Below the pieces are notes generated by a model. That model saw nothing but the letters and a program-made list of their open reading frames with translations, searched no databases and was not told the origin of the DNA. A stretch of 64,000 nt of DNA. It comes from Deltaproteobacteria bacterium (GTDB lineage Bacteria; UBA10199; JADGCS01). Made by a program: the position numbers and the translations under genes. The stretch lies in the NCBI GenBank assembly GCA_015228875.1, contig JADGCS010000001.1, positions 55,886 to 119,885 of the forward strand, read 5' to 3'. This document shows positions 1,769 through 57,317 of the stretch, in pieces (position 1 is the stretch's first letter; the number at the start of each line of letters is the position of its first letter).

Positions 1769-3844
1769 CTACTTACCTGGCTTTTTTTCGATCCTGCAGA
1801 TCTTGGAACACCCGTCACCATTCCTTTGGTTGCCATCGTCACATTCCTCGCTGCCGGCTTTTTTCCCGTTGCCACACCCCTTTGTGCATTGGCTGGGGTT
1901 ATTATAATTGCAGGCATAACCGCTCTCAATGGCGCAGGCTGAACACCCATCACCGCTGACATTTGGTTCTGCAGAATTCATACCATCTATTGCAGAACGT
2001 GACAGTTGGGTGATTGTTTGTGAAGACACATCGAGACCAAAAATTGTAAAGCCTTGCCGACTCGTGCCAGTCCATATTGATGAACCGGAATTAAAAACAA
2101 CCTTGTTACCATCTGATGAGGTTCTTTGATCAAAAGAATGTCCGTTACCCTGAACGCCACTTGCATCCTTGGATACAAGCGAAATGTTATTCCGCACGCG
2201 ATCATAACGAAACAGATCTTTCATTGTTCTGTTGGTGTCAAGTCTGGTCAATCCGGGATCTTCGGACACAAAGACTACATAGCGCCCGTCAAAACTGACT
2301 TGTGGTTTGTTTGATGCTCCTGTTGGCTCCGCCCCGTCGTGTCTCATCGAAATACGCGTGAAAGTACCCCCAACAGCATTTTTTTCGTAAAGAAACACAT
2401 CTAATTTATTATTGTTGTCATTGGGTACAAGATTGGTTGCCTCCGATTCAAAGGCGATAAAGTTACCGTCGTCACTTATGCTGGGATTATCAGATGCCCC
2501 ATTGGCATCTGACCCATCATCACCCTGAGTGATTTTTTGCGTCCTGCCTTCCACAAGATCGTGAATACATATGTTTTTGATGTCATTGATTGTGCAAACA
2601 AAGGCCAGATAGCGGGCATCGGGTGTGATTTGTGGGTTTGTATTTTGCCCAGAAAGGTCAAGGCCCTCACCGTGAAGTTTTATGAGTTGTGCATCGAATG
2701 GGTCGGGGTAGGTCAGCCTTCCAGTGGCGGCACGCTCGTGCGTTACAGAGTCACGACACATGACTTCGTATGCAATGGTCGCGGTATCATCCATTCCGGG
2801 GCTGGTTCTCAAGTTGACGCCAAACCAGCCGTCAAACCATTCGGTCTCTAAAGAAGATCCGGAATGTGTGTAAACCACCTTACAGGATATATTATTTTCT
2901 TTGTTAGTATTTGGTTCAAATCTCAGTTGACCATCGTCCAGCAAATGGACTTTCGTTGAGATAATATGCAAAGGGTTGTCGATGATAATGTGACGATGAA
3001 TAATTGTTTCATTCCCGTAAACATCGGTTACCTTGATGAGAAGGTCTGTTGCTCCATTTTTAAAAAGACGGGTATCAAAGTCAAAATCCCATGCGCCATC
3101 TACAACCCCAGTTACAACAGTGCAAACATGCGATGGATTACAAAGACTGATACGTCTCACCCCTGTGTCATCAAGGGCAACCCCACGGAATGTGACAGTG
3201 CCGCTGATCGTTGAATCTTCTGCGGGAGCGGTCAATGAGACTTGGGGGTTATTCATCACAAAATAGGCAATCCTGTCTTCAAACACAATTCCATCGGGGT
3301 CAGAGGTTCTCAGACGCAATTGATACGACCTGTTTTCTGTGACCGTCGGGACCGTTAATTCCCCCAAGACCCTTTCACCAATCACGGCACTCCCCCCCAG
3401 GCTGCTGATCACAGCGCCAGCGTCGTCAAGCCACTCCAGTGTATAGGGTGTTGGCGCGTCAGCATCCTCTGATCCCACAGAGCCCTCTACACTCAGGGTG
3501 TCTCCAGTGTTCAAGACGATCCCATTATGCGGGGACGTGATCATGACCTCGTAGGGATCCTGAATATCTAAAGCAATATCTGCCTGCACAAGGCCGTAAC
3601 CGTAGTATACATCAAAGCCAGGTGCCCCAAAGTCTGTGCCGCCCAGACGCAATGCCTGTTGCACCTGATCGTTACTGTATTCTGGGTGGGACTCGCGTAT
3701 GAGTGCGGCAATACCGCATACGTGAGGGGTGGCCATGCTTGTGCCGCTTTTCATCTCATAGGAACTACCTGGGATGGTTGATAAGACATCAACACCGGGG
3801 GCTGCCACATCAACGTTGATCCCAAAATTTGAGAAATCCGCGGA
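1769..3844 (-). CDS. S8 subtilase C-terminal fragment in the -1 frame relative to 3751..5112. It carries the catalytic Ser (SGTSMATPHV), PD40/TolB-like beta-propeller repeats and a C-terminal Myxococcus-type Cys-rich repeat.
   Basis: In frame B, upstream of the GTG the tool used, the sequence reads SADFSNFGINVDVAAPGVDVLSTIPGSSYEMKSGTSMATPHV. Repeated DGxxxAFxS units follow. The C-terminus reads ECDDGNQRNGDGCSKIC. Confidence 0.75.
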   Translation of the reverse strand, partial: SADFSNFGINVDVAAPGVDVLSTIPGSSYEMKSGTSMATPHVCGIAALIRESHPEYSNDQVQQALRLGGTDFGAPGFDVYYGYGLVQADIALDIQDPYEVMITSPHNGIVLNTGDTLSVEGSVGSEDADAPTPYTLEWLDDAGAVISSLGGSAVIGERVLGELTVPTVTENRSYQLRLRTSDPDGIVFEDRIAYFVMNNPQVSLTAPAEDSTISGTVTFRGVALDDTGVRRISLCNPSHVCTVVTGVVDGAWDFDFDTRLFKNGATDLLIKVTDVYGNETIIHRHIIIDNPLHIISTKVHLLDDGQLRFEPNTNKENNISCKVVYTHSGSSLETEWFDGWFGVNLRTSPGMDDTATIAYEVMCRDSVTHERAATGRLTYPDPFDAQLIKLHGEGLDLSGQNTNPQITPDARYLAFVCTINDIKNICIHDLVEGRTQKITQGDDGSDANGASDNPSISDDGNFIAFESEATNLVPNDNNNKLDVFLYEKNAVGGTFTRISMRHDGAEPTGASNKPQVSFDGRYVVFVSEDPGLTRLDTNRTMKDLFRYDRVRNNISLVSKDASGVQGNGHSFDQRTSSDGNKVVFNSGSSIWTGTSRQGFTIFGLDVSSQTITQLSRSAIDGMNSAEPNVSGDGCSACAIESGYACNYNNPSQCTKGCGNGKKAGSEECDDGNQRNGDGCSKICRIEKKPGK

Positions 3845-5112
3845 TTATCACCTGACTGTATTGCGGCAACGGTCACAACACCAGCAATGTTGGCAGGGTA
3901 GTAGTTGTAGGTATCAGAGTGATCGTTCCCTGCAGCGGCCACGACCACAGCATCCAGACTGCGCGCAAACGCAATCGCTTCACGCTCAACAAGTGATCCT
4001 TCATACGAGCTAACACGTCCCAGACTTAAATTGATCACATCAGCCCCCATAGTCGCCGCGTAGGTGATTGCCGCAGCAATATCCGAGGAGCGGCCTTTAC
4101 CAATTGATGATAGAGCTCGCACCGGCATGATCTCGCTCCCATGCGCAACACCAACCACACCGATCCCATTATCGCCCACAGCCGCAATGTTCCCTGCAAC
4201 GTGTGTGCCGTGATAATGTTGATCCATCGGGTTGTTATCCGGGCCTTCATCGTTGTAGGTTGTAAAATTGTAACCGTTAACATCATCAATGTAACCGTTT
4301 GCATCATCGTCGATGCCGTTATCGGGGATCTCGCCGGGATTTTGCCAGATATTCTCGCTTAAATCGGGGTGGTTGTAATCAACACCGCTGTCCACAACGG
4401 CAACAACGACGCCAGCCCCGGTGATGCCCTGTGCCCAAGCCTCAGGTGCGTTTACCCTGTCGATTCCCCAGAGTTCCGGCAGGGAGGGGTCATTGGGGAG
4501 GGGGACTGCGGGATCCACCTCATCGAGTGTAATCACCTCGTCAATTGTTACCGACTCCACATCTGGGTCGTTTTTAAGTTCGTTGATGAGATCTGTCACT
4601 GCGGGGTCTGTTTTGTCTTTGCTGATTTTTGCATCAAGCTTCATGACGTAGAAATCAGAGAGACGGGGAGTCTTGTCTGTGGGAGACCCCTTATTTTTAA
4701 GGGTTGGACGCTGTTGCTTGACCTTATTAAACACATCTTGATGCAACAGGCCTTCGGTTTTCCCCGATGTTTTCATTTTTTTTACAAGTCCGGTAAACAC
4801 GGGCCTTGTCTCGCTGATCTTTTTATGCTGATTAAAAAAGGTATCCAGTTTTGAACCTCCTGATTTTTTGATATCACCTCTCTTAAACCGCATTTTGTCT
4901 GCTGATAATCTGTCCTTTAACAGGCCGCCCAACCCAGGGGCACCGGACTTCGCGGGCTTAAATTTGACGATCAGGCGCACAGGTTCTTTTTCTGCATCCG
5001 CCTGTTGATCCAAAAGTGGATCTAAGCCCTTAAACTGGCCCTGCGTGAGGCAGGGGACAAGAAACAGACAGCCAATAAAAACGATCAACGCGATGGATGT
5101 GTTTTTAAACAT
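3751..5112 (-). CDS. Secreted S8 subtilase, N-terminal fragment: signal peptide, propeptide, and the catalytic Asp/His/Asn part
   Basis: Signal peptide MFKNTSIALIVFIGCLFLV. Motifs VAVVDSGVD, HGTHVAGNIAA and AAGNDHSD. The frame ends in out-of-frame residues after ...SGDNPR. Confidence 0.8.
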   Translation of the reverse strand: MFKNTSIALIVFIGCLFLVPCLTQGQFKGLDPLLDQQADAEKEPVRLIVKFKPAKSGAPGLGGLLKDRLSADKMRFKRGDIKKSGGSKLDTFFNQHKKISETRPVFTGLVKKMKTSGKTEGLLHQDVFNKVKQQRPTLKNKGSPTDKTPRLSDFYVMKLDAKISKDKTDPAVTDLINELKNDPDVESVTIDEVITLDEVDPAVPLPNDPSLPELWGIDRVNAPEAWAQGITGAGVVVAVVDSGVDYNHPDLSENIWQNPGEIPDNGIDDDANGYIDDVNGYNFTTYNDEGPDNNPMDQHYHGTHVAGNIAAVGDNGIGVVGVAHGSEIMPVRALSSIGKGRSSDIAAAITYAATMGADVINLSLGRVSSYEGSLVEREAIAFARSLDAVVVAAAGNDHSDTYNYYPANIAGVVTVAAIQSGDNPRISQILGSTLMWQPPVLMSYQPSQVVPMR

Positions 5113-9744: not shown

Positions 9745-10122
9745 ATGTTGACCGCAAATCATGAATACGACATCATCACCTGCCGGGGATTTCAATACGC
9801 ATGCGAGATCGGCATTTTTGAGAATGAGCAGGGCGTTAAACAAAAAATTCTTGTGGATCTTAAGGTCCCCATCAAGAAAGACGTGTCTTACGAACAGGAC
9901 AGGGTGCAGGATATCCAGTTCGCTTACGATCAGGCAAATCAGGTGATCAAGGGTGTTGTTGAGGGAAAAAGGTATAATCTGATCGAATCACTCGCAGAAA
10001 AAATTGCCTGTGAGCTTTTACAAAAATTTGCTATTGAGTTTGTCGAAGTGGAGGTCACAAAATTTCCCATCGATATGCCCAACGCAGACTCCGTTTCATT
10101 CACATGCATCAGGGGCAGGTAA
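9745..10122 (+). CDS. folB: Dihydroneopterin aldolase
   Basis: About 125 aa with the FolB-like pattern IxxCRGFQYACEIGIFENEQGVKQKILVDL...YNLIESLAEKIA. A GGAGGG RBS precedes the ATG at 9745. Confidence 0.75.
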   Translation: MLTANHEYDIITCRGFQYACEIGIFENEQGVKQKILVDLKVPIKKDVSYEQDRVQDIQFAYDQANQVIKGVVEGKRYNLIESLAEKIACELLQKFAIEFVEVEVTKFPIDMPNADSVSFTCIRGR

Positions 10123-10123
10123 T

Positions 10124-10777
10124 ATGAAAATCATATCCAATACCGCCATCAGTATCGATGGAAAAATAGGTTTTAAAATAGATCAGCTTGTTTTTTTGGG
10201 GACACGGCGGGACCGTATCAGGATGAGTGAGATTAGGGGAACGGCGGACGCCATTCTGGTTGGAGGGCAGGGTTTTAGAAACTGGCCAAAACCCCTGCTG
10301 GCCAGAGAAGAAGACGAAAAACACGATCTTAAAAAAAAACCAAAACTGAATGTCGTTTTATCCCACAGCCTGCATCTACCGGTTGACAACGAATATCTTG
10401 CCGAAAAGAGAAAAAGAACTCTGGTCCTGACTGACGCCACAGCAATCCCCCATGGATTTCCCTTTGAGGTCGTGCAGTGCAGGGGGCAGATTTCTGCGGA
10501 ATGGATCGCGGACGAGATTGCCAAGAGGGGTGTAGAGACGCTGCTGATCGAGGGCGGTTCAACCATCCTGCACATGTTTTTACAGTCCGAACTCATCGAT
10601 GAGATGTTTATCACGCTGTGTCCGCTGATTATTGGTGGCCATCAGGCCCCGTCGCTTGTGGGCGGCGAGGGATTTACCGTCAGCCATTTCAAGCGTTTCG
10701 AGATCGTTAAAAACGAAGTCATCGGTCACGAGATCTTTCTGCACTACAAGTTACTAAAAAACAAGTTACTAACTTGA
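10124..10777 (+). CDS. RibD C-terminal-domain / dihydrofolate-reductase-like family reductase
   Basis: ISIDGKIG, DAILVGGQGF and LLIEGGSTILHMFLQSELIDEMFITLCPLIIGG are hallmark motifs of the RibD_C/DHFR fold. The ATG lies 1 nt after the folB stop. The C-terminal approximately 12 aa are read from repeat A. Confidence 0.7.
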   Translation: MKIISNTAISIDGKIGFKIDQLVFLGTRRDRIRMSEIRGTADAILVGGQGFRNWPKPLLAREEDEKHDLKKKPKLNVVLSHSLHLPVDNEYLAEKRKRTLVLTDATAIPHGFPFEVVQCRGQISAEWIADEIAKRGVETLLIEGGSTILHMFLQSELIDEMFITLCPLIIGGHQAPSLVGGEGFTVSHFKRFEIVKNEVIGHEIFLHYKLLKNKLLT

Positions 10778-10895: not shown

Positions 10896-11519
10896 ATGAA
10901 ATGTGAAGAATCAAACCGCAAGTGTCAGCACACAGTTTTCAAGATCGCAGAAAAAAAAGACAACAGCCCCGTCATCAGGGAGTCTGTGGCAAATATTCTC
11001 TCTGCCCTTGGTGAGGATGTGGGACGGGAGGGGCTGGTTAAAACCCCCGAACGTGTGGCAAAGGCGCTGCAGTTTTTAACCAAGGGCTACTACGAAGACC
11101 CCTGCTCCATTATCAAGAGTGCGCTGTTCGAAGAAGACATAAACGAGATGATCGTGGTCAAAGACATCGAGCTTTATTCGATGTGCGAACACCATCTGCT
11201 GCCTTTTGTTGGCAAGGCGCATGTTGCCTATCTCCCCAGAGGGAGAATTGTAGGCCTTTCAAAGGTTGCGCGTGTGGTCGATATCTTTGCGCGCAGGTTT
11301 CAGGTGCAGGAAAGGCTCACCAAGCAGATTGCCGAGACACTCAACAACTGCCTTGAGCCGCAGGGGGTTGCTGTGGTCATTCAGGCGGCCCATATGTGCA
11401 TGCAGATGAGGGGGGTGCAGAAACAAAATTCGGTCATGGTCACTTCGACGATGCTGGGGGCCTTTCAGGAGCTGGCGACACGCAATGAGTTCATGAATTT
11501 TATCAAGGGGAGTTTATAA
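10896..11519 (+). CDS. folE: GTP cyclohydrolase I
   Basis: [18 protein letters not shown]...[25 protein letters not shown]. Confidence 0.93.
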
Positions 11520-11531
11520 AGCGGGGAGAAT

Positions 11532-11939
11532 ATGTCTCACACACGATTAATCTGCCGCTATCCATTTTGCGCGGCGCACAGACTCTGGCGATCGGACTGG
11601 TCCGAAGAAACCAATAAAAAACATTTTGGCAGATGCACCGGTATCCATGGCCACGATTACAGGATAGAGGTCCACCTCACGGGTGATGTGTCAAGGGAAA
11701 CCGGGATGCTCATTAACGGTTTTGCAGTCGACGAGATTGTCGGCACATTTATCAGTAAACACCTTGATCACAAGTATCTCAATCAGGACATCCCTTTTTT
11801 TTCAGATCATCTGCCCACAGCCGAGATGATTGCCTTCTGGGTTTATAGCAGTCTCAAAGCATCGTTTCCCAGTCATGTGACACTCGAGAAAATAGTGATT
11901 TTCGAAACACCCGATCTGATCGTCGAGTACAGTGTATGA
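11532..11939 (+). CDS. queD: 6-carboxytetrahydropterin / 6-pyruvoyl-tetrahydropterin synthase family (QueD/PTPS)
   Basis: CxxxHGH motif (CTGIHGHDYRIEV), FxAAHRL start, about 135 aa. Confidence 0.8.
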   Translation: MSHTRLICRYPFCAAHRLWRSDWSEETNKKHFGRCTGIHGHDYRIEVHLTGDVSRETGMLINGFAVDEIVGTFISKHLDHKYLNQDIPFFSDHLPTAEMIAFWVYSSLKASFPSHVTLEKIVIFETPDLIVEYSV

Positions 11940-13024
11940 ACATCAGACATGTTATCTTTGACTGGTCGGGGACTTTGTTCAACGATCACAGGCCTGGATA
12001 TCTGGCCACCAGGGATATTTTTGTAAAACTTGCCGGCATTGATATTTCTTTTAAGGATTACAAAAAATATTTTAAACTGCCGGCGGTTTCCATTTACAGG
12101 CGTTACGGCATCAAGACCCCTTTTAAAAAAATCAACGAAATCTATTTTAAAATATATGAAAATTACTACAGAAAGGGATCCCTTTTTGACGGGGTGATTG
12201 ATGTCCTCAAAACACTTAAAAAACAGGGGATACAGGTCAGTGTTTTTTCTACGGTCAGACAGGATCTCATTGAGGATCTTGTCAAAGCATACAATCTTGA
12301 GAGTTATATTACAAACGTCACGGGTTCGGTATGTGACAAACGTAAAGAGATGAAAGGGCTGTTACAAAAAATCAAATGTCAGCCCGCTCAAATCCTGTTT
12401 ATAGGAGACATGGAACACGACATTCAGGCGGCGAAAAAAAACGGACTGATCAGCGGCTGTGTGAATAATGGGTATAGTACAAAAGAGATACTTGTTCGTT
12501 CCCGTCCGCGTTTTATGTGGCAGACACAGAGGGATCTGGTCCCTTTTTTAAAAAAAATATCCCAGAAAAAAAATAAAGCAGTTTGTCCCTTAAAATACCC
12601 TGTGTCAACTGTCGGGGCGCTGATCTTTAATACAAAAGGAGAGGCCCTGTTTGTGCTGACACACAAATGGGGATTCACTTACGGGATTCCCGGCGGCAAA
12701 ATAAAAAAAGGTGAAAGTGCAGATGCTGCCCTAAAGAGGGAGCTTCTCGAAGAGACAGGTCTCGATATCATTATCAAGGAACTCATTGTTGTGCAGGACT
12801 GCATTGCTTCGAGGGAATTCTACATCAAAAAGACACATTTTATTTTATTTAATTATCTTGCCTGTGCAAAGAGTGGTGTCGTACAACTTAACAATGAGGC
12901 CGTATCGTTTTTGTGGCTTGATCCTCGTGATGCACTCAACTTAACACTTAATGAACCCACGCGGTATCTGTTAAAAGTTTATCTTCAAAAGGCAAAAAAA
13001 AAGACCCTCGCACATTGCCGGTAG
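11936..13024 (+). CDS. HAD-superfamily phosphatase fused to a NUDIX hydrolase
   Basis: N-terminus VIFDWSGTLFND (HAD motif I DxxGT) and FIGDMEHDIQAAKKNG (motif IV). C-terminus carries the Nudix box GGKIKKGESADAALKRELLEETGLD. The start overlaps the queD stop (ATGA). Confidence 0.75.
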   Translation: MNIRHVIFDWSGTLFNDHRPGYLATRDIFVKLAGIDISFKDYKKYFKLPAVSIYRRYGIKTPFKKINEIYFKIYENYYRKGSLFDGVIDVLKTLKKQGIQVSVFSTVRQDLIEDLVKAYNLESYITNVTGSVCDKRKEMKGLLQKIKCQPAQILFIGDMEHDIQAAKKNGLISGCVNNGYSTKEILVRSRPRFMWQTQRDLVPFLKKISQKKNKAVCPLKYPVSTVGALIFNTKGEALFVLTHKWGFTYGIPGGKIKKGESADAALKRELLEETGLDIIIKELIVVQDCIASREFYIKKTHFILFNYLACAKSGVVQLNNEAVSFLWLDPRDALNLTLNEPTRYLLKVYLQKAKKKTLAHCR

Positions 13025-19142: not shown

Positions 19143-20330
19143 TTATTTAACTGGTGTGTCCTGCCTGTTTTTGTGTTTGAGGGTCATGTGGTACTTGAGT
19201 GAGGCCCTGAGGGCACTTGCGCCCTGTGACGTTTTGATGAGTCTCACACTGACAATACGCGCAAGATTGCGGTAGATTTTTGCTGCAATGACAGGAAAAT
19301 TTCTTTCGATATTTTCGAGGTTGTTAAGATCGTGTACCAAAACATCTGCAGGGGACATGGCAATGACATCGGAAGAACGCGTGGTCTCGGCAAGGTAGGC
19401 CACCTCGCCGAATGTTTCTCCCTCGGAAAAACTGCAGATCTGATTGATGATGCCTTCGATCTCGTGACAGACCGAGACCTCTCCCGACAGCAGGGTGTAA
19501 ATCTCGTTTTTGGAGTCGCCAAACGTGATGATTTTATCGCCATTCTTGTATTTTTTTATTTTACCGAGACTGGTGATCAGTTGCACTTCTTCTTTTGACA
19601 TCGACTTGAAGAGATTAACCGTGTCACCGATGGTTGCCGAGATTTTTTCGGAGATGAGATCAAACGCGTCATCGTTGCTCATGGAGAGCTTGATTTCCCT
19701 GTCCGCGTAACGGGAGAAAACTTTTTTATAATGCTGGGCAGCATCCGGGGCGTTGGGAAATTTGACCGCGATTTCGACAAACGGAGAACAGACCGTGTCA
19801 AAGTGGTTGGTGTCTTCTGTCACAAGGACCATGGGGGTGGCATAGCCGCTTTCTGGGTGATTGATATTGGACATGTACTGTCTGAATCCCAGGTGTTCGA
19901 AAAGAGTAACAAGGTGTGCCCAACTGTCGATAAAAACATACTGGCACTTCTGCTTTCGGGCAAATTCGTAGCAGGCAAGGAGGAGTTCTTTTACAATCGA
20001 CCCGCCGCTGTGTGACTGACTGATAGCGAATTTGGTGAACATCGCCGTGTGACCCGGATAATAAGGTTTAAAACCGTCGAGTTCGTAAAAATTTTCGTGA
20101 TGAACAGGCCCGTCTTTAGAAAGGTTGACCCTTAAGGCCCCAACGACCTTGCCGTTTTCTACGGCGAAAAAGTTGTGTGCGTAGCTGTCACAGGGTTCGA
20201 TGAGTTGTTTACTGTCGTGGAGCGCGTGCTCTGGAAAAAGATGAAGTTCTTCGACAAAGACCTTGTAGCGCAAGTGATAGACAGCATCCTTGTCTTCTTT
20301 GGTCGTGGCTTCTTTAACTTGAATGGTCAT
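19143..20330 (-). CDS. GNAT-fold (N-acyl amino acid synthase-like) acyltransferase fused to a cyclic-nucleotide-binding domain
   Basis: N-terminal about 200 aa resemble acyl-CoA N-acyltransferases (ALRVNLSKDG...FIDSWAHLVTLFEHLGF). C-terminal FGEVAYL...RSSDVIAMSPADVL is a cNMP-binding fold. Confidence 0.5.
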   Translation of the reverse strand: MTIQVKEATTKEDKDAVYHLRYKVFVEELHLFPEHALHDSKQLIEPCDSYAHNFFAVENGKVVGALRVNLSKDGPVHHENFYELDGFKPYYPGHTAMFTKFAISQSHSGGSIVKELLLACYEFARKQKCQYVFIDSWAHLVTLFEHLGFRQYMSNINHPESGYATPMVLVTEDTNHFDTVCSPFVEIAVKFPNAPDAAQHYKKVFSRYADREIKLSMSNDDAFDLISEKISATIGDTVNLFKSMSKEEVQLITSLGKIKKYKNGDKIITFGDSKNEIYTLLSGEVSVCHEIEGIINQICSFSEGETFGEVAYLAETTRSSDVIAMSPADVLVHDLNNLENIERNFPVIAAKIYRNLARIVSVRLIKTSQGASALRASLKYHMTLKHKNRQDTPVK

Positions 20331-20665: not shown

Positions 20666-20938
20666 ATGTATACTGTTTATGAACACAAGAGAGTAAAATT
20701 GCAGATCAAGAAAGCTCCTCCAGATGTCAAAAGAAAGTATATGGCATGGAAAAGGATTATGGAACTCGAGGGTCAGTATGGACTGAGTTTTATCAAGGGA
20801 TTCCATGATGAGGGTTTAAAAGGCCAATGGAAAGGGTTTCGATCATCACGTCTTGGTTTAAAATGGCGCGTTATTTATAAAATATACAAGGATGATTTAG
20901 AGGTTTATGTGATCGAAATTAACCCACATAAATATTGA
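20666..20938 (+). CDS. higB: Type II toxin, RelE/ParE (HigB-like) family
   Basis: 90-aa basic protein ending ...GLKWRVIYKIYKDDLEVYVIEINPHKY, placed upstream of an HTH antitoxin. Confidence 0.7.
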   Translation: MYTVYEHKRVKLQIKKAPPDVKRKYMAWKRIMELEGQYGLSFIKGFHDEGLKGQWKGFRSSRLGLKWRVIYKIYKDDLEVYVIEINPHKY

Positions 20939-21222
20939 GAGGCAACATTATGAGAAAGATTAATAAAAAAAATTTTGAGAAAGCAAAAGATCACATCAAA
21001 ATGACTCCTGGTGAAATGCTTGTCACATTACGTAAACTGCAGGATATCTCGCAGAACGATTTGTCAGAGATGACGGGAATGAGCCAATCAAACATTTCCA
21101 ATATGGAATCAGGGCGCCAACAAATAGGAAGAGATAGAGCTCTCGTTTTGGCTCAGGCCCTCAAAGTGCATCCTTCAGTTATTCTGTTTCCAGATTACCA
21201 AATGGATGAATGTGCGGTATAA
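20935..21222 (+). CDS. higA: XRE-family HTH antitoxin (HigA-like)
   Basis: QNDLSEMTGMSQSNISNMESGRQ helix-turn-helix. Overlaps the higB stop. The alternative start ATG 20950 has a better RBS. Confidence 0.7.
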   Translation: MRGNIMRKINKKNFEKAKDHIKMTPGEMLVTLRKLQDISQNDLSEMTGMSQSNISNMESGRQQIGRDRALVLAQALKVHPSVILFPDYQMDECAV

Positions 21223-21322: not shown

Positions 21323-22210
21323 TCAATTATGAAAAAGCGGCACCTCGCGCATCTTGTCAAACTCTGCGGTATGAAATCTTTTCATGCGCTCCAATACCTT
21401 TTTGCCTGAAGCGGTGAGCTTTATGTACACCCTGCCCATGCAGAAATAGCCTTCAATAGAGGACCGGAACCGGTTGAGTTGTGCCTCGAAGACAGCCATG
21501 TCACTCTCCATGGCCTCGATTTGATTTTTCTTGTCCCTTAAGATCTCTACCAGTTGATGGGCAGCATGGACGTGGTCGGCCCTCTTTTGTTCGAGGCGCT
21601 CCTTTTTTTTGCCCGCATCTATTTCGGGGTTGAAGTAGCTCATGAATGACCGCGTCATGACCATCCACGATGAATTGACATGCCAGGATGTGATTTGATC
21701 TTCTATTTTTTCTATCTCCCTTGTGTGATGCAGAAGTTTTTTTGTGATCTCTACTGTTTGTCTTCTGATCGGGAAGATCTGATCCTGAACCGACTGGATA
21801 AAACCCTTAAGGGCTGAAATCTCAGAGACCTCCCATTGAATTTCCTGGGCAGCGCGCATTTTTACAAGGCCCTCATCGTTAAGCCTGTTAAGAAAAGAGA
21901 GGGGAACTGTTTCGAGATCATGGTTTGTTGTCCCTGTTTCGGCAAAGAGCAGGACGTCGAATTTTTTTACCTGTATGGAATCTGTTGCCGAAAAATCGCT
22001 TCTGATCCTTTCTATTTTTTTGCCTGGCCCCACTGTTTCTGAAGAGGGCGTTTGTAAATCCGATTGATAGGTGAGGGATTCATCCGCATCCAATGTCCCC
22101 GGAGGTACATCAGAGACAGAGATGCTTAACTCGTGCGAGAGCCCGCGATATTTTATATGGTCAGTCATGGCAGCAAGATAACGCATGAAGGAAATGATGA
22201 CTATAGGCAT
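21323..22210 (-). CDS. Hypothetical coiled-coil protein
   Basis: Long ORF without recognisable motifs. Confidence 0.4.
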   Translation of the reverse strand: MPIVIISFMRYLAAMTDHIKYRGLSHELSISVSDVPPGTLDADESLTYQSDLQTPSSETVGPGKKIERIRSDFSATDSIQVKKFDVLLFAETGTTNHDLETVPLSFLNRLNDEGLVKMRAAQEIQWEVSEISALKGFIQSVQDQIFPIRRQTVEITKKLLHHTREIEKIEDQITSWHVNSSWMVMTRSFMSYFNPEIDAGKKKERLEQKRADHVHAAHQLVEILRDKKNQIEAMESDMAVFEAQLNRFRSSIEGYFCMGRVYIKLTASGKKVLERMKRFHTAEFDKMREVPLFHN

Positions 22211-22299
22211 GCCTGATCACAAACCTTTGGTCTCTCGCGCATTGTTGTAGCGTATTGAAATTATTTATGTATTTCTCGTTAACATGACAAAGAACACCT

Positions 22300-24099
22300 G
22301 TGGGTCAGAAATGTAATAAACATTTTGAGATTGGTCTGAAAAGGGGTATGACCCTTTTGGCAGAACAAGCAGAACAAAGTGATACTATGATCAAACAACG
22401 CATCTTACTCTTTGCCCTTTTGTTTTCGATGACGCTTGCGGGGGTGCTGGGTCATCTGATCTGGAAGGACCTGCTGGGTCGCGAAAATAAAGGGTATGCT
22501 GTTAAAATGATCCGGGGTATGTATGCCCTTGTCAATAATGTCGATCAAGTTGTGCATCGACACATTACCCCGGAACTTTATAAAGACATTCTGCATCAGC
22601 CCCTATCAAAGACGTCTTTTAAGGACTCTCAGGTTTTTAATAATTTAAGAAAAGAACTCAAAAAAATTGACGGTCTTCACAATTTTTATATCGGATTTTA
22701 CACAGACTGTAGCGATGAAGAACCCGGTTCATGTTATTTTGATGACTACCCGGGTGGACAGGTTGTCAGGCGCTACGAGCCAGAGAGCCGCCCATGGTAT
22801 CTTGCCACGCATTCCCACACCGACTGGGTCCTGATCAACTTTATGAGGTTAAAGGAAACCCTCTCGACAGATTACCCTCCAAAGTGGGGATGGGTCTTGA
22901 GCAAAAAAATCGTTTACGATGAACAGGACGACCCTGCAGACAGCCCGCGGGACAAGGGTCTCTGGATCAACCTTTATATCCCGTTTGAGCAAAAAGAAAA
23001 TCTGGAACAGGACTTCAACGAATATCATGGCTCCATCCTTGAACTCGCCCTTTCAAAGGATTACCCCTATTTTTTCTTTTTTGAACTTTTTTTTAAGACG
23101 GTGCTGTTTCCCAAAAAAGCAATCTCTGATCCGGGATCACTGACCATCCTGTGCCATCAAAACAACGAGTACGAACTCTTCAGTTCTCTGTACAGGTCCT
23201 TTGTTTCCTGCCAGGTCAACAAAGAGACGATCCATTTTAATTTTTCAAAAAAATATGATCATTCCTGGCACCGCCTTTTTCTGGTGTTCATTGGACTCGT
23301 GTTTGTTTTTGTGACTTATTTTTTCTTCAGGTACATCCAGGGCCTTCAGATGCAGAGCATCAACAACAGACTGGAAATTGAAAAAGCCAAAACAGCAAAC
23401 TTGATCGGATCAAAGCTCATCCACGATCTCAAAAAGGGCATCATGGCCCCACTCAACCAACTCCCGCAGATTTATGAACACAACTTCGAGTCCGAGGCGC
23501 TGCAACGCGATTTTAAGGAGCGTCTCAAGGCCAACTTTAAACAGCATTTTAAATACTTAAGTTTGCTGAGTAAATACACTCAGCTTCTCACAAACAATTT
23601 AAAGAGAACGCGGGAAAAAAGGTGGGTCAAACTTGATCAGACAATCATGGTGCAATACCTCGACTGGATACTGGGCCGCCATGAAGTGGACATCATCCCG
23701 GTGAACGATGAAGATATTGTTTTAAGAATGGAAATCGAATCGACGGAAAAAATACAGGCAGGGCTTTATCTGTCGGTCAACTTTCCAGACATGTATATCC
23801 CCGAAATATCCTTTTACCGCATCCTTAAAAACATCTGGGAAAACTACAACGCCTACGGAAAAGGGTCGCTTGTTATTGAGTGCGAAAAGCAGAACCACAT
23901 GATGATTGTCAGGGCAACAAACCAGATCAAAGAGCAGACTGAACACACAGCGTCAGCAACCAATCTGGGGCTTACCATCATCAATCAACTTTTGGAGGAC
24001 AATTTTGGCGCAGAAAGGGTTAACGCCTCTGTCAAAAAAGATGATGATCTTTACCTGATCAACATTGTTTTCCCGATCCTTGAGGTTCCTCCCGAGTAA
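22300..24099 (+). CDS. Sensor histidine kinase with periplasmic Cache-like domain
   Basis: TM1, periplasmic region with RPWYLATHS (Cache PWY motif) and TM2. Then LIHDLKKGIMAPL (H-box-like) and a C-terminal ATPase with NLGLTIINQLLE. Confidence 0.6.
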   Translation: MGQKCNKHFEIGLKRGMTLLAEQAEQSDTMIKQRILLFALLFSMTLAGVLGHLIWKDLLGRENKGYAVKMIRGMYALVNNVDQVVHRHITPELYKDILHQPLSKTSFKDSQVFNNLRKELKKIDGLHNFYIGFYTDCSDEEPGSCYFDDYPGGQVVRRYEPESRPWYLATHSHTDWVLINFMRLKETLSTDYPPKWGWVLSKKIVYDEQDDPADSPRDKGLWINLYIPFEQKENLEQDFNEYHGSILELALSKDYPYFFFFELFFKTVLFPKKAISDPGSLTILCHQNNEYELFSSLYRSFVSCQVNKETIHFNFSKKYDHSWHRLFLVFIGLVFVFVTYFFFRYIQGLQMQSINNRLEIEKAKTANLIGSKLIHDLKKGIMAPLNQLPQIYEHNFESEALQRDFKERLKANFKQHFKYLSLLSKYTQLLTNNLKRTREKRWVKLDQTIMVQYLDWILGRHEVDIIPVNDEDIVLRMEIESTEKIQAGLYLSVNFPDMYIPEISFYRILKNIWENYNAYGKGSLVIECEKQNHMMIVRATNQIKEQTEHTASATNLGLTIINQLLEDNFGAERVNASVKKDDDLYLINIVFPILEVPPE

Positions 24100-25320
24100 T
24101 TGCTGATGATCAAACCATTTCTCAACATACTGCTGCTCGATGACGACAACAATTTCGCCGCAACACAGGCCGAAAACATCAGGCATCGGCTGCACGCGTC
24201 TTACGGGCTCGATAAAGAGGTTTTTTTTATTGAAAGCAGCACACGCCTGGATACGATTACCGAGACCATCAGCTCAAGAAACTGGGACGTGGTTTTGTGT
24301 GATCTTGGCTGGGGGGATCTTAATCTCGAAGGTATCCAGATTCTCAACGACATCAAAATGTCTTACCCTTCGGTCTACGCCTTTCTGTACACGGCTCAGG
24401 ACCCCAGTGACGAAACAGTGAGTCAGGCACTGCAGTGGAAGCTCAATTTTATAGATGACATCATCCCGATCGATGAGCAGGATTATACAATGCGCATGGT
24501 TGCCAATATCATCGACGTCTTTGAACGCAAGCGGTCCTTGCTCCTTTCCAAAAAGGATCCCGAGGATACCATTAAACTGCTCGAGGATTTTTTAAAGGCA
24601 GAGTCCGTACACAAAAATAAGATGTGCGAAAAAAACTTTGCAGAAGGGTACCTTTTTAAACACGTCTTTCCGGAGTGCCATTATCTGGCACTCACTGAGC
24701 CAGCTTTTGCTGATGATGTGGCAGGGGTGTGGAGGGGGAAGGTCTTAAACATCATTGATCAGCTAGATCACCAGACGCACGAACACGATGTGTCCATCAG
24801 GGGAACACGCTTACTCCCCAAAAATCAGAGGGTGGCGGTCATCAAGGATTTATCACGCGAGCTGCATGACATTCAAAAGAGGATACAACCGCTCCTCAAC
24901 GAACAGGCGGAATCACTCGCTGCCGAGATTTGTGTCTCCCAGTACGAGCTATCCATCAAGATTAAAGAAAACCCCATCGACCAGCGTTTAAAAAAATACA
25001 ACGACCTCATCCTTAACAAAAAAAGATTCCCGCGTGTCGAGGGCCATGACCTTCTTGCCCTCGATAAAACCTCTTTCATTGAGTTTATCAAGTCCACATA
25101 CGGTGGTTTTCCTCAAATGGCCGAAAGACGCGGGTTGGATCTTAACAATATTTACCGTGTCAACAGAAAATTTAAAAACCTGCCGTTTATTGTATTTAAA
25201 TACGAAACGATCGCCGAGATCATCGGCATTCACAATCCGGACGCCCTAAACGAAAAGATCGCCAGGCTGCTGTCACAGGAAAGACAGATCAGACGCGTTG
25301 TCAACAGACTGCCGCGGTGA
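24100..25320 (+). CDS. Response-regulator receiver protein with uncharacterised 250-aa C-terminal output domain
   Basis: ILLLDDD...VVLCDLGWGD...YTAQDPSD receiver motifs. The C-terminal domain was not recognised. Confidence 0.55.
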   Translation: MLMIKPFLNILLLDDDNNFAATQAENIRHRLHASYGLDKEVFFIESSTRLDTITETISSRNWDVVLCDLGWGDLNLEGIQILNDIKMSYPSVYAFLYTAQDPSDETVSQALQWKLNFIDDIIPIDEQDYTMRMVANIIDVFERKRSLLLSKKDPEDTIKLLEDFLKAESVHKNKMCEKNFAEGYLFKHVFPECHYLALTEPAFADDVAGVWRGKVLNIIDQLDHQTHEHDVSIRGTRLLPKNQRVAVIKDLSRELHDIQKRIQPLLNEQAESLAAEICVSQYELSIKIKENPIDQRLKKYNDLILNKKRFPRVEGHDLLALDKTSFIEFIKSTYGGFPQMAERRGLDLNNIYRVNRKFKNLPFIVFKYETIAEIIGIHNPDALNEKIARLLSQERQIRRVVNRLPR

Positions 25321-25328
25321 GGGCCAAG

Positions 25329-26252
25329 TCACCCATTTCCAATCCTGATTTTTTCCGAGGTTGTGTTTTCACGATTGTCTGATACCTCTGTCGCCTCTTT
25401 GCCCGATTGTTCCTCTATCGGGATTGGCATGTATTTGACATCCTCACGGGTGCTGTCCTCAATGAGGATCTGGCTGTCCTGAGTATCAGGGCCCCTGAAA
25501 AGCCCGTTATTCTGGGGCAGAGGTGTGTCTTCTGCGGTGGTTGCCTTCTGGGTCATGCCCCTGAAGAGCCCAAGGACAAGGCGCAGGATGTAAAGCGGAA
25601 TCACCGAAAACATGACAAGCGCGGTAAAACGGGAAAAGGGGGTGATGCCGTCAAGAATCATGGAGACATAGGCAGAGGTGTTAAACTGTGAAATAAAAAT
25701 ATCGACGGCACAAAAGACGCCAAAACCGATGATAGAGGCAACGGGAAAACGGATAAACATGAGATAATTGCGCGTGAGTTTTTTTATGCCAAATGCCAGG
25801 ACAAAGATGGATGTAAAACCCGATGCAATGGCCGCGGAGAGGGCAACAGCAGAGGTCAGGCGATAATTGATCAATTGATCGAGCAGGGTGTCGAACTGTG
25901 AGGTCTCAGGGTCGAGGCTGTGTTTTTTAAACATCATGAGCAGAAAGAAAGAGAGTAAGACCATGCCTGCGGTGTTGAGAGATGCATAAAAGGCGGATTT
26001 AAAGCCGTAAAATTCGAAGACAAGATACAGACAAATAAATGAGATAAAGAGTGCCATGTGGGAGAGTGGCATCAAGCCTGTGATGACGGTGATGTGTGGC
26101 TCACCGTCGGTTGTGGTGGCCTCAACACTGGGGTAGAACGGGATCTGCTTTGCGGACAGGACGAGTCCAAGGACCGCAATAGTGATCGCGACAGCAAAAA
26201 GCAGATACTGCACCAGGAAAATTTTTGTGGGGATGGGTTTCATATCTTGCAA
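25329..26252 (-). CDS. Integral membrane protein (possibly YhhQ/VUT-like)
   Basis: Six or more hydrophobic helices. The family assignment is tentative. Confidence 0.4.
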   Translation of the reverse strand: MQDMKPIPTKIFLVQYLLFAVAITIAVLGLVLSAKQIPFYPSVEATTTDGEPHITVITGLMPLSHMALFISFICLYLVFEFYGFKSAFYASLNTAGMVLLSFFLLMMFKKHSLDPETSQFDTLLDQLINYRLTSAVALSAAIASGFTSIFVLAFGIKKLTRNYLMFIRFPVASIIGFGVFCAVDIFISQFNTSAYVSMILDGITPFSRFTALVMFSVIPLYILRLVLGLFRGMTQKATTAEDTPLPQNNGLFRGPDTQDSQILIEDSTREDVKYMPIPIEEQSGKEATEVSDNRENTTSEKIRIGNG

Positions 26253-26311
26253 AAGCGTGGGCCATGAGAAATTCTGACGTATCCGCAGGAACGTCAGAAT
26301 TGCTTATGGTC

Positions 26312-26462
26312 TGGTAACTTCTCAATAAGTCATGGCGCATGCATACGTCATTGCGAGCGTACGCGAAGCAATCCCCCGAGTTCACTCATGAGATTGCTTT
26401 GGTCGCTTACGCTCCCTCGCAATGACGGCCGCAACTGCCAGGGGTTATTGAGAGAAGTTACA
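26312..26462. repeat. About 150-bp imperfect palindrome built from two inverted family-C units (cgtcattgcgag...aagcaatc) with perfect 15-bp outer arms
   Basis: gtaacttctcaataa (26314-26328) pairs with ttattgagagaagttac (26446-26462). The inner arms are also reverse-complementary. The centre is the palindrome ctcatgag. Confidence 0.8.
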
Positions 26463-26504
26463 TGGCCCGCGCTTTATTAACTGCATTTATTGGGTTTATG
26501 CAAA

Positions 26505-27257
26505 CTAATAGTACGCCCCGTACCCGGTCCACTGCTGCCAGGGATAGTGTGTGTCTGCTGTGACCTTGATCCAGAAGGGGCGCCCGGATGTTCTCCAGGG
26601 GTCAACGATCAGACCGTCCTTGAAGGGTCGTCCCATGGGGATAATGACAGCCACATTGTGTTCGGTAATTTTTTGCATGTTTGCTTCGCCCCAGACCACA
26701 TAGAAAAACCCGCGATTGACCGTCCTTAAATAAGCAAGCAGGTCCTCCGCCCAGTGTTTGCAGGCACCCCTCTTGCGCACGCCGACATCGATCATCATAT
26801 TGTGGACAATAGGAATAAAGATTGACCTGTAGGATTTTTTTAATCTTCTGATCTCGTTAAATAGGCCCACAGTCAGTACGGTGGCCTCGGTTTGCAGACT
26901 GGCGCGGTCAAAGTCGGTGTTTTTATAATGAGCAGTGTACAGATCGATCAGATCTTCCCTGAGTCTATAAAGGGGGTCGATTTGTTTTTTTTGTTCTACA
27001 AGATCAAAGTACTCTTTTTTGTAAGAGGCCTGTTTTTTAGAAAGCCTGTTTAGATTTTTGCCCTTGGAATTTTTGAATCGCCTGATGAGATCGGGCGAAA
27101 GGGTAGAGATCAGTTTGTTGTACCTTGTCGTTATCTCTGTGTGGTAAGAGTCGAAGTTTTCGGGGGTGATTTGAGTAAGGTAGTCCCGTTTTGCCATGGC
27201 AGAAGGGGAGATAAAGACAAAAATCAATAACAGGATCGAGATCAGGGTCTGTTTCAT
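26505..27257 (-). CDS. Secreted hypothetical protein
   Basis: MKQTLISILLLIFVFISPSAMA signal peptide. Confidence 0.45.
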   Translation of the reverse strand: MKQTLISILLLIFVFISPSAMAKRDYLTQITPENFDSYHTEITTRYNKLISTLSPDLIRRFKNSKGKNLNRLSKKQASYKKEYFDLVEQKKQIDPLYRLREDLIDLYTAHYKNTDFDRASLQTEATVLTVGLFNEIRRLKKSYRSIFIPIVHNMMIDVGVRKRGACKHWAEDLLAYLRTVNRGFFYVVWGEANMQKITEHNVAVIIPMGRPFKDGLIVDPWRTSGRPFWIKVTADTHYPWQQWTGYGAYY

Positions 27258-27543
27258 ATGTCTGATAAAACCTTTCTTGCGTTGCATGGGTTGGCAGGCA
27301 CCCCTGTTTTACCATGAAGATTATGCAAAAATCCATGGCGCAAAGCGGCCCTGACGGATGTAACCATTTTTGGCAGAAATCAAGAGAATACTCACTTTAA
27401 ATTAACTTGAAAATTATGCAAAAAGGAAGACGCGTTCAATGCGTCTTTGTTTTTGCCGAAAAAAAATGACATTAGTTTTATTGCATTAACAGGGATGGCG
27501 TTGTAAATGTTCGTATCCTGCAAATCATGGGGAGGGGGGGACA

Positions 27544-27936
27544 ATGGAGCCTTCTAAGATACTGCTTGTCGATGATGAAAGAGGCTACATCGATAGTCTT
27601 TCGGGGCGCCTTGTGATTCGCGGTTTTGATGTCCGTGGCGTCGAGGATGGTTTTAAAGCCATCGAAGCCCTTAAGGATTTCAGGGCAGATGTCGTCCTGC
27701 TTGATGTGGTCATGCCAGGCAAGGACGGCGTGCAGACGCTCAGGGAGATCAAACAAAATTACCCCAACATTGAAGTCATCATACTCACAGGCAACGCAGA
27801 TGCGCAGACAGCGATTAACGTAATGGAGCTCGGGGCCTTCGACTACCTTCTTAAACCGGTTGGTGTGGATCATCTTGTCTGCAGGCTCAACGATGCCTGC
27901 AAGAAAAAAATGCTGCTCTTAAAAAAAGTGTATTAG
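27544..27936 (+). CDS. Single-domain response regulator (CheY-like receiver)
   Basis: ILLVDDE...VVLLDVVMPGKDG...IILTGNAD...LLKP. Confidence 0.9.
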   Translation: MEPSKILLVDDERGYIDSLSGRLVIRGFDVRGVEDGFKAIEALKDFRADVVLLDVVMPGKDGVQTLREIKQNYPNIEVIILTGNADAQTAINVMELGAFDYLLKPVGVDHLVCRLNDACKKKMLLLKKVY

Positions 27937-50123: not shown

Positions 50124-50747
50124 ATGCAGTTTCGCAATCACCTCATCAACTTACTTGCCGACCCTGTCAAAATACGTGTGTATCAAGCATTATCTCTCCA
50201 CACTGTCGGCTTGACCGGCAGGGCACTGGGCCAGATCGTTGAAACCTCGCCTTTTAAGATCAATCAGGTCCTGAAATATCTGGTTGAACAGGGGCTTGTT
50301 ATCCAAACCGTCCTGGGGAAGGCCCATCGCTACAGCCTCAACCTCGAACACGTCTTTATCAAAAGTGCCATGATGGCTCTGCTCAAGTCTGAGAAAGACA
50401 TTTTAAAAAACATGGGGCGCATGATGACCAACAGGCTCTCCCCAAAGCCTCTGGCCATTATCCTTTACGGGAGTGTCGCGCGGGGAGACGAGGGGGCGAG
50501 GAGCGATCTGGACCTCCTTGTTGTCTTTGGAGACCGGCCCCCTTCTTCGAAGGTACTCATAAAAAAGTTTGAAGACATCCCCCTTATGTACGGCAATTTC
50601 CCGTCGATCACATGTGTTGGACTGTCTGACTTTCTGTCGCCAGACAGTGCCCACCAGGCGTTGATGAGGCACATTAAAAAAGAGGGTAAAAGCATTGCGG
50701 GTTTATCAGTCACTGCATTAATAAGCAAATATGGTCACAAAAGTTAA
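50124..50747 (+). CDS. Minimal nucleotidyltransferase (MNT) with N-terminal winged-helix DNA-binding domain
   Basis: LYGSVARGDEGARSDLDLLVVF matches the GS-x9-DxD nucleotidyltransferase motif. Confidence 0.7.
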   Translation: MQFRNHLINLLADPVKIRVYQALSLHTVGLTGRALGQIVETSPFKINQVLKYLVEQGLVIQTVLGKAHRYSLNLEHVFIKSAMMALLKSEKDILKNMGRMMTNRLSPKPLAIILYGSVARGDEGARSDLDLLVVFGDRPPSSKVLIKKFEDIPLMYGNFPSITCVGLSDFLSPDSAHQALMRHIKKEGKSIAGLSVTALISKYGHKS

Positions 50748-51135
50748 CACAGTCGCTGTTATAAAAAACGAATACAAAAGCTACAAAAAAAAGGCCGACC
50801 AGTTCTTTGCGGTTATGAACATGTGTCTCGAAGACCGAGAATGGGACGCTGTTTTTCTTAATGGCCTGCACGCGGTGATCAGTATCAGTGATGCCCTGTG
50901 CGTTTTTCAACTCGGGCAGAGGAGCACCGGGCGCTCTCATACCGACGCATCAAAACTGCTTCAACAGGCTTACCCCACGGCCGAAGGAAAAAAACGCGCC
51001 GGTCAGTTTTTTGAAATGATTAATATTAAAAACGAGGTCGAATACACACCACGCCTGTTTCAAGAAGGCGAGGCCCGCACGTTTTCCCTCAAAGTCAGCC
51101 GGTTTATAGAATGGGCGGTCAAGAAGCTGCCTTAG
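50731..51135 (+). CDS. HEPN-domain protein (partner of MNT)
   Basis: Overlaps the MNT stop. An R-x5-H motif (RSTGRSH) sits in a helical protein of about 130 aa. Confidence 0.6.
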   Translation: MVTKVNTVAVIKNEYKSYKKKADQFFAVMNMCLEDREWDAVFLNGLHAVISISDALCVFQLGQRSTGRSHTDASKLLQQAYPTAEGKKRAGQFFEMINIKNEVEYTPRLFQEGEARTFSLKVSRFIEWAVKKLP

Positions 51136-56750: not shown

Positions 56751-57317
56751 ATGTTGCTCTTAATCGACAATTATGATTCCTTTACCTACAATCTGGTGCA
56801 GTACCTTGGGGAACTGGGGGCCGATGTTGTGGTCAAACTGCACGATCAAATCAACTGCGATGACATCGACAGCCTGCAACCCGATCACATTGTTATTTCA
56901 CCCGGTCCCTTAACCCCAGACGAAGCGGGGATCTCAATTGAAGTGGTCAGGAGATTTTCGGGCCGCATCCCGATATTGGGTGTTTGTCTTGGTCACCAAA
57001 GTATTGGAGCGGCGTTTGGTGCCCACGTGATTAAGGCTCCAGTGGTGATGCACGGAAAAACATCCAAAATCTATCATGACGGGAAAACTATATACAAAGG
57101 GCTTCCGGTGCCTTTTGAGGCGACACGTTATCATTCACTGGTGATTGACAGGGACGCCTTGCCCAGTGAACTGGAAATCTCTGCAACAACTGATGACGGT
57201 GTCATCATGGGCGTGCGACACAAACACCACCCAACAGAGGGTGTGCAGTTTCACCCCGAGTCTGTTCTGACTCATGAGGGCAAAAGGCTCTTGGGAAATT
57301 TTATTGAATGTGTGTGA
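56751..57317 (+). CDS. pabA: Glutamine amidotransferase, anthranilate/aminodeoxychorismate synthase component II
   Basis: LLIDNYDSFTYNL...ILGVCLGHQSI...HPES. Confidence 0.85.
   Translation: MLLLIDNYDSFTYNLVQYLGELGADVVVKLHDQINCDDIDSLQPDHIVISPGPLTPDEAGISIEVVRRFSGRIPILGVCLGHQSIGAAFGAHVIKAPVVMHGKTSKIYHDGKTIYKGLPVPFEATRYHSLVIDRDALPSELEISATTDDGVIMGVRHKHHPTEGVQFHPESVLTHEGKRLLGNFIECV

Follow-up and report, generated by a model that had tools for sequence, protein, structure and literature searches.

A RibD_C-fold reductase coupled to FolB is a candidate dihydropterin reductase of uncultured bacteria

The 64,000-nucleotide stretch of DNA analysed here as a whole (referred to as the window; positions 55,886 to 119,885 of contig JADGCS010000001.1, from a Deltaproteobacteria metagenome-assembled genome or MAG) carries an open reading frame (ORF) at 10124–10777 on the + strand, whose 217-amino acid (aa) product matches the Pfam family PF01872, RibD_C, with an E-value of 8.6e-26 (91.4 bits against a gathering cut-off of 24.1, covering residues 2–204 of 217). 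The same sequence is deposited at NCBI as MBF0103748.1, where it is labelled 'dihydrofolate reductase family protein' and assigned to a 125 kb contig of a Deltaproteobacteria MAG. Because all family members begin with MK[IV][IV]SNTA, the ATG start at 10124 was preferred, and a longer ORF that starts with TTG (10004–10777) was rejected as the gene. Directly upstream on the same strand lies a gene for a FolB-type dihydroneopterin aldolase (9745–10122, alternative start 9703; PF02152, E 4.2e-20), the TAA stop codon of which ends at 10122 and leaves a spacing of 1 nt. This agrees with the preliminary description of the locus, which had placed a RibD_C family gene 1 nt 3′ of folB. A purine-rich GGGGCAGG stands directly ahead of the RibD_C start codon. 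The window FolB scores slightly below the equivalog cut-off of TIGR00525 (64.9 vs 72.15) and passes the domain model TIGR00526 (58.5 vs 45.05), and by eye it has the equivalents of all four of the residues E21, Y53, E73 and K98 of Escherichia coli FolB.

Further downstream on the + strand follow a GTP cyclohydrolase I gene (folE, 10896–11519; PF01227, E 5.7e-76; TIGR00063, 261 bits against a cut-off of 181.6), a PTPS-family gene with the QueD (PTPS-I) motif CTGIHGH (11532–11939; PF01242, E 2.1e-30), and a gene for a HAD and NUDIX fusion resembling a FolQ-like pyrophosphatase joined to an atypical HAD domain (11936–13024; HAD_2, E 2e-23; NUDIX, E 7.6e-17), which overlaps the queD stop codon by 4 nt. 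Upstream, on the opposite strand, lie serA-like and purA genes. Scans for promoters and terminators around the cluster gave no signal above chance.

Pfam scans of the window revealed no folA (DHFR_1), thyA, thyX, folK, folP, folC, canonical ribD, queC or queE. These scans covered non-overlapping candidate ORFs of at least 90 aa, apart from one of 836 aa (51283–53793), one of 98 aa and those from 58016 on; the last 6 kb were read by eye. Searches of all six reading frames of the entire window by phmmer, with E. coli FolA, FolK and FolP and with an approximate ThyX query, likewise found no match, so that the earlier statement that no folA is visible in the window stands. The term 'folate cluster' used in the same description fits only in part: folB, folE and the FolQ-like Nudix fusion are indeed present, but the genes are those of the early pterin branch, and the committed folate genes are absent. 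The only other possible folate gene of the window, on the p-aminobenzoate (pABA) side, is a lone PabA/TrpG-type glutamine amidotransferase gene (56751–57317, +) beside ispD/ispF.

The best NCBIfam model of the RibD_C protein is TIGR01508, the archaeal-type riboflavin reductase, which it matches with 103.5 bits where 186.45 would be needed; the other riboflavin models are missed as well (TIGR00227, 92.9 vs 150.15; TIGR00326, 64.5 vs 156.35), as are the 'pyrimidine reductase family' models of the type of Mycobacterium tuberculosis Rv2671 (NF010663, 54.5 vs 184; NF010664, 54.7 vs 226), and PF00186 (DHFR_1) gives no match at E 0.01. A database search returned approximately 58 single-domain proteins at 35–50% identity, followed by a gap, by relatives at approximately 30%, and by bifunctional RibDs. 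All members of the clade formed by the first group are single-domain proteins with no fused deaminase. Among 1.84 billion cluster representatives, a profile search found 291 proteins at E <= 1e-30, of which only roughly the best 40–50 carry the clade signature described below. The gene is a member of a small and distinct branch, still without a name and coupled to FolB, of the riboflavin-reductase/dihydrofolate reductase (DHFR) fold. A literature search for a RibD-like gene tied to folB or tetrahydromonapterin found nothing on this clade.

When a single representative genome of each GTDB species was scanned with the profile of the family, 75 loci emerged, and every carrier was a MAG, with no isolate among them. 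The carriers belong to an uncultured lineage of the Burkholderiales (recorded as 'Caldimonas' or 'Rhizobacter sp.'), to Myxococcota, Polyangia and 'Deltaproteobacteria', and to Chlamydiae, with one MAG each from Nitrospira, Schekmanbacteria and Bdellovibrionales. Some carrier records are plainly misnamed, such as lake MAGs that are listed as 'Klebsiella pneumoniae' or 'Bifidobacterium breve'. Two of the distant relatives (P0066 and P0067) were dropped as a functional lead, as both keep the DDP motif of riboflavin reductases and show no FolB linkage; the P0067 gene (L085, 7351–8678, on a 6.15 Mb contig) has a 1-nt overlap with an upstream gene for a MOSC/YiiM-domain protein.

The coupling to FolB was examined in neighbourhoods extending 10 kb either side of the gene. 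A hidden Markov model (HMM) search of six-frame translations placed a same-strand FolB directly upstream in 70 of the 80 genome-derived loci, and the same arrangement was present in 77 of 80 further metagenome loci (one of the three exceptions being truncated). Three unrelated contigs annotated with Pfam showed FolB immediately upstream within wholly different surroundings, and three more were alike. The FolB stop and RibD_C start codons overlap by 4 nt (ATGA) in 36 of 73 and in 39 of 77 loci; a further 8 have an overlap of 1 nt. The genome-derived exceptions comprise four Chlamydiae MAGs, in which the order is RibD_C-FolE-HAD/NUDIX without FolB, and six Myxococcota loci with the RibD_C gene on its own; the window combines both arrangements, FolB-RibD_C and RibD_C-FolE-HAD/NUDIX. 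Neither folK, folP, folA nor thyX occurs within 10 kb in any of the approximately 160 loci, and neither the window nor the loci with Pfam annotation showed any rib genes.

The partner FolBs appear to be intact enzymes, with E21, Y53, E73 and K98 (E. coli numbering) kept in 69 of 69 full-length sequences, a pattern that cannot tell an aldolase from an epimerase because FolX has all four residues too. Their mean identity is 30% to E. coli FolB and 17% to E. coli FolX. Moreover, the pairwise identities of FolB and RibD_C correlate across loci (r = 0.90; Mantel 0/999), in part because both genes share phylogeny. The adjacency of FolB and RibD_C spans approximately 150 uncultured bacteria, and the gene is functionally tied to pterin metabolism. 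That the pterin link proposed from the window is genuine, and that this is no ordinary riboflavin gene, is supported by the FolB adjacency in approximately 147 of 160 loci, by riboflavin-model scores far below the cut-offs and by Asn in place of an essential Asp (see below).

In the Burkholderiales, a fixed order (L005, 9616–12035, and approximately 90 similar loci) runs alaS, FolB, RibD_C, GNAT and a secreted dienelactone-hydrolase-like protein, with GNAT in 57 loci, a signal-peptide-bearing dienelactone-hydrolase-family gene in at least 38, and frequent overlaps between the stop and start codons of neighbours. A gene of the latter family is also found 3′ of RibD_C in an unrelated Myxococcota locus (L073).

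The active site was compared column by column between 56 clade members and a set of 4 distant single-domain relatives, 10 bifunctional RibDs and 2 archaeal Rib7 proteins. The clade retains the NADPH-site motifs (G..G and EGG), Arg38, Asp42 and Glu143-Gly-Gly, in which Glu143, the catalytic Glu of the EGG motif, is invariant. Also retained is Asn6, at a position that is Asn in archaeal (TIGR01508-type) enzymes and Lys in bacterial RibD, and that has been linked to the recognition of 2-amino versus 2-oxo substrates (PMC3631187). Asp30 (codon 10211–10213, +) is invariant in the clade and common to archaeal Rib7, and is replaced by Ala or Ser in bacterial RibD. It aligns with Asp33 of M. mazei Rib7, the residue that recognises the 2-amino group of the substrate; PDB entries 5XV0 and 5XV2 are, by their titles, the D33N and D33A mutants of this enzyme. 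We take the M. mazei Rib7 site to map to N9, D33, D57, E156 and S88, of which only D33N, D33A and S88E are confirmed by entry titles.

The clade departs from the riboflavin reductases in one loop. The motif GxGT[IV]xDDPxLTxR, present in 16 of 16 reference reductases, is rebuilt in the clade as GGxTFRNWPxPLxP, and in the window the FRNWP segment that replaces [IV]xDDP, with Arg52 and Asn53, is encoded at 10274–10288 (+). Of the 56 members, 47 have Asn in place of the first Asp of the loop (Asn53 in the window), 5 have Thr and 2 have Gln, and none has an acidic residue there; 50 have Trp in place of the second Asp. The clade also lacks the trailing Arg of LTxR, whereas all members have a new Arg52. 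The first of these columns is that of the essential Asp, which is Asp in all 16 reference reductases (D83 in yeast RIB7, D200 in E. coli RibD). The loop change is specific to the clade, since the distant relatives at approximately 30% identity, without FolB linkage, keep DDP. The M. mazei Rib7 mutant D57N, which is not among the entries confirmed by PDB titles, is said to behave like yeast D83A. In the yeast D83A mutant, activity is almost gone and NADPH binding is unaffected (PMC3631187). Judging from the alignment, the clade has lost a residue required for riboflavin chemistry.

An AlphaFold model of the protein (mean predicted local distance difference test or pLDDT of 89.8, predicted template-modelling score of 0.88) was compared with known structures by Foldseek. 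The top matches were the Rib7 enzymes of M. mazei, M. jannaschii and M. thermautotrophicus together with RibG of B. subtilis (template-modelling or TM scores of 0.77–0.82 to 5XUX, 2AZN and 2B3Z), followed by Rv2671 (TM 0.72) and then by the T. maritima DHFR (1CZ3), which superposes with a TM score of 0.59 by query length or 0.75 by target length (Foldseek E 1e-11). The protein therefore does share the DHFR fold, as initially stated.

Closest in both sequence (profile E 4.6e-37) and structure (TM approximately 0.8) are thus the archaeal and fungal Rib7 enzymes (5XUX, 2AZN, 6P8C). Rib7 is a 2,5-diamino-6-ribosylamino-4(3H)-pyrimidinone 5′-phosphate (DAROPP) reductase. Like the clade, it is a single-domain protein of approximately 220 aa with the G..G and EGG NADPH motifs, Asn6 and Asp30. 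In contrast to Rib7, the clade is bacterial, coupled to FolB and without nearby rib genes, scores below the TIGR01508 cut-off, and has the essential Asp changed to Asn and DDPxLTxR rebuilt as FRNWPxPLxP. We favour a descent of the clade from archaeal-type (Rib7) riboflavin reductases in which the substrate would have changed.

Our best explanation, which we put forward tentatively and at somewhat less than even confidence, is that the protein may use NADPH to reduce an unconjugated 7,8-dihydropterin that FolB makes or uses. The broader claim that the enzyme reduces some pterin ring, dihydrofolate (DHF) included, is one we consider probable. In the proposed scheme, FolE would convert GTP to 7,8-dihydroneopterin triphosphate, the Nudix/HAD fusion or general phosphatases would strip the phosphates, and FolB would epimerise or cleave the resulting dihydroneopterin. 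The RibD_C protein, working as a unit with the aldolase encoded just upstream, would bind the 2-amino-4-oxopyrimidine face of the pterin via Asn6 and Asp30, and reduce the C6=N5 bond of the unconjugated 7,8-dihydropterin by hydride transfer from NADPH, giving a tetrahydropterin. Dihydroneopterin, dihydromonapterin and 6-hydroxymethyl-dihydropterin are the candidate substrates.

Reduction of an unconjugated dihydropterin is favoured because the partners that recur all produce or act on 7,8-dihydroneopterin, and because folK, folP, folA and thyX are absent from the 10 kb on either side of the loci. Rv2671 (see below) provides a precedent, in that it shows this fold binding and reducing a dihydropterin ring. 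It is favoured as well because the residues that read the 2-amino-4-oxopyrimidine are kept (pterins share this group with the archaeal riboflavin substrate) while the residue for ribosyl reduction of the riboflavin type is dropped, and because tight translational coupling best suits consecutive steps. The logic proposed here, in which a FolB-family T-fold enzyme and an NADPH reductase together yield a tetrahydropterin, is that established for FolX/FolM of E. coli and Pseudomonas and for PTR1/PruA, and the clade would be a functional equivalent of FolX/FolM on the DHFR/RibD fold. FolX and FolM are mentioned as converting dihydroneopterin derivatives to tetrahydromonapterin outside the folate pathway (PMC1971073). 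However, FolM, PTR1 and PruA are short-chain dehydrogenase/reductase (SDR) enzymes with a TGxxxRxG motif and a fold unrelated to that of the RibD_C clade, and the partner of the clade is nearer to FolB than to FolX.

Several observations weigh against this explanation. FolB may be just a housekeeping folate enzyme, in which case the coupling would signify 'folate' and not 'unconjugated pterin'; a homology search with a Burkholderiales FolB partner was filled by metagenome sequences 83–94% identical. No tetrahydropterin-using enzyme, the presumed physiological consumer of the product, was found near any locus in phmmer searches with approximate queries for phenylalanine hydroxylase and pterin-carbinolamine dehydratase. 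Residues 51–70, which make up the rebuilt loop and would be expected to touch the substrate, have the lowest confidence in the model (pLDDT 59–65), and position 53 can be N, H, T, Q, L, K or A across the broader clade, so that Asn itself says little beyond the loss of Asp. Finally, the pair of the window lineage is embedded among queD, queE and folE, from which it follows that another GTP-derived substrate is possible.

The strongest of the other explanations, although we consider it rather unlikely, is that the protein is a substitute for FolA, i.e. the DHFR of these genomes, acting on FolC-made DHF as Rv2671 can. Rv2671 (4XRB, 4XT4, 4XT6) shares with the clade the RibD_C fold and the lack of a deaminase domain, and by PDB titles was crystallised with dihydro- and tetrahydropteridine rings, which indicates that the fold is capable of DHFR-type chemistry on a pterin ring. 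Unlike the clade, Rv2671 is not known to be linked to FolB. It is described as a DHFR or DHFR analogue and not as a riboflavin enzyme (PMC12855090), and this precedent upholds the initial suggestion that members of the family can stand in for DHFR. In favour of such a role for the clade are also the fold that it has in common with DHFR and Rv2671, the lack of folA in the window and within 10 kb of any locus, the link to a folate-pathway FolB with intact catalytic residues, the many genomes that are still without a recognisable DHFR (PMC1971073), and the label 'dihydrofolate reductase family protein' already given by NCBI.

However, the clade is only distantly related to Rv2671 (identity approximately 21%, E 7.5e-9, TM 0.72), which belongs to a different NCBIfam family and whose model NF010663 is missed by a wide gap. 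FolA itself (PF00186) shares the core fold and the NADPH site, and the T. maritima DHFR is matched by the family profile at E 7.5e-11, but the clade is approximately 60 residues longer and has no DHFR_1 match, and an hhalign comparison of the family with E. coli FolA covers only 28 columns around GGG (probability 0.5%). In a hand alignment limited to the loops, no conserved Arg was seen at the position that holds the glutamate tail in DHFR. Moreover, the pair was never found near folK, folP or folC, and as FolB and DHFR act four steps apart, a tight coupling of just these two would be odd.

A less probable alternative is another GTP-derived substrate, such as a phosphorylated dihydroneopterin, a 6-substituted dihydropterin that feeds QueE (which would amount to an alternative route to 6-carboxy-tetrahydropterin, CPH4), or a substrate of pterin salvage or repair. 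It draws on the lineage of the window (L080, L082, L111 and L145), in which the pair lies within one overlapping operon together with QueE, FolE, QueD and HAD-NUDIX. In L082 this operon consists of FolB with an extra C-terminal domain, an SDR, RibD_C, QueE, FolE, QueD and HAD/NUDIX, and in L111 and L145 the order is DUF2203-FolB-RibD_C-QueE. The retained Arg38, a position that we take to be phosphate-binding in riboflavin reductases, along with the new invariant Arg52 suggests an anionic group on the substrate. However, only a single lineage has que genes alongside the pair, and approximately 140 other loci have FolB alone. Furthermore, QueD of the same operon already yields CPH4, and FolB works on dephosphorylated dihydroneopterin.

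Three further features were noted. The extra C-terminal domain of FolB measures 80–120 aa (L082, 8587–9297; L080, 9405–9995) and in L082 shows an HYH...E...H pattern that may be cupin-like. The SDR encoded between FolB and RibD_C in L082 has the motif TGGGTGIG, unlike the TGxxxRxG of FolM and PTR1. The HAD and NUDIX fusion recurs at L052 (11301–12377) and L082 (12288–13412) with an intact Nudix box, and the sequence of its HAD motif I, DWSGT or, in Chlamydiae, DFAGT, lacks the second Asp typical of HAD phosphatases; the fusions of the window lineage and the Chlamydiae MAGs are 41–46% identical, and the type of the four Chlamydiae MAGs is 41% identical to the window protein over its full length. 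The fusion could perform both dephosphorylation steps of dihydroneopterin triphosphate. In most bacteria, no gene has been assigned to the second of these steps.

The PTPS homologue next to folE had initially been seen as a possible sign that the cluster makes a tetrahydropterin cofactor and not folate only, a view that is not supported in this form. Among PTPS proteins, CxxxHGH marks PTPS-I/QueD, Cx5HGH the biopterin-type PTPS-II and ExxHGH the folate-type PTPS-III (PMC5041015). The window protein has C-T-G-I-H-G-H, i.e. CxxxHGH, and scores 63.7 on TIGR03367, below its cut-off of 89.25. Its homologue in L082 is 56% identical and lies in the same operon as QueE (TIGR04349, 247 bits), two genes away. 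Because of this motif and of QueE in the L082 operon, the PTPS gene points to 7-deazaguanine/queuosine and not to tetrahydrobiopterin.

Finally, that the gene encodes a genuine archaeal/fungal-type DAROPP reductase lying beside folB by chance is highly improbable: although its best sequence and structure matches are the Rib7 enzymes of M. mazei, M. jannaschii and M. thermautotrophicus, with TIGR01508 as the best model and Asn6, Asp30, Arg38 and Glu143 as in archaeal Rib7, the TIGR01508 score stays under the cut-off, the Asp without which yeast RIB7 is nearly inactive (PMC3631187) is replaced in all members, the Arg of LTxR has gone, the surroundings contain neither a rib gene nor a deaminase, and chance placement cannot account for a FolB adjacency that is kept across phyla.

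Elsewhere in the window, a subtilase (Peptidase_S8) is split over two overlapping ORFs in different frames (1769–3808 and 3751–5112, both on the - strand), with profile positions 1–184 in one ORF and 206–288 in the other, which would fit a frameshift, a pseudogene or an assembly error. The region 21323–27873 holds six consecutive ORFs (295, 599, 406, 307, 260 and 131 aa) without a Pfam match at E 1e-4 and has a lower G+C content (0.43–0.47). Two gene pairs resemble toxin-antitoxin systems, namely a 90-aa ORF overlapping the gene for an HTH_3 protein (20666–21222) and a Pol-beta-type nucleotidyltransferase gene overlapping a 134-aa ORF (50124–51135). The ORF at 19143–20330 (-) joins a FeeM/GNAT-type N-acyl amino acid synthase domain to a cyclic-nucleotide-binding domain.

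Databases currently name members of the clade in ways as different as 'riboflavin deaminase-like' and 'dihydrofolate reductase family', and there is evidence behind none of these names. The route to a tetrahydropterin cofactor has been worked out in only a few bacteria. For the final reduction of folate synthesis, many bacteria are without an identified enzyme (PMC1971073). A further-reaching possibility, which we regard as speculative and on balance unlikely, is that a Rib7-derived enzyme took over DHFR-type chemistry and, as a self-contained module with FolB, spread among Burkholderiales, Myxococcota, Chlamydiae and other uncultured lineages. If this is true, the protein would be the long-missing dihydrofolate or dihydropterin reductase in genomes without folA or FolM, or else the entry to a tetrahydropterin cofactor so far undescribed in bacteria, such as 6-hydroxymethyl-tetrahydropterin. 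With its FolB partner, its diagnostic GG-x-T-F-R motif and its clear origin among the riboflavin reductases, the clade makes a sharply defined candidate for such a role.

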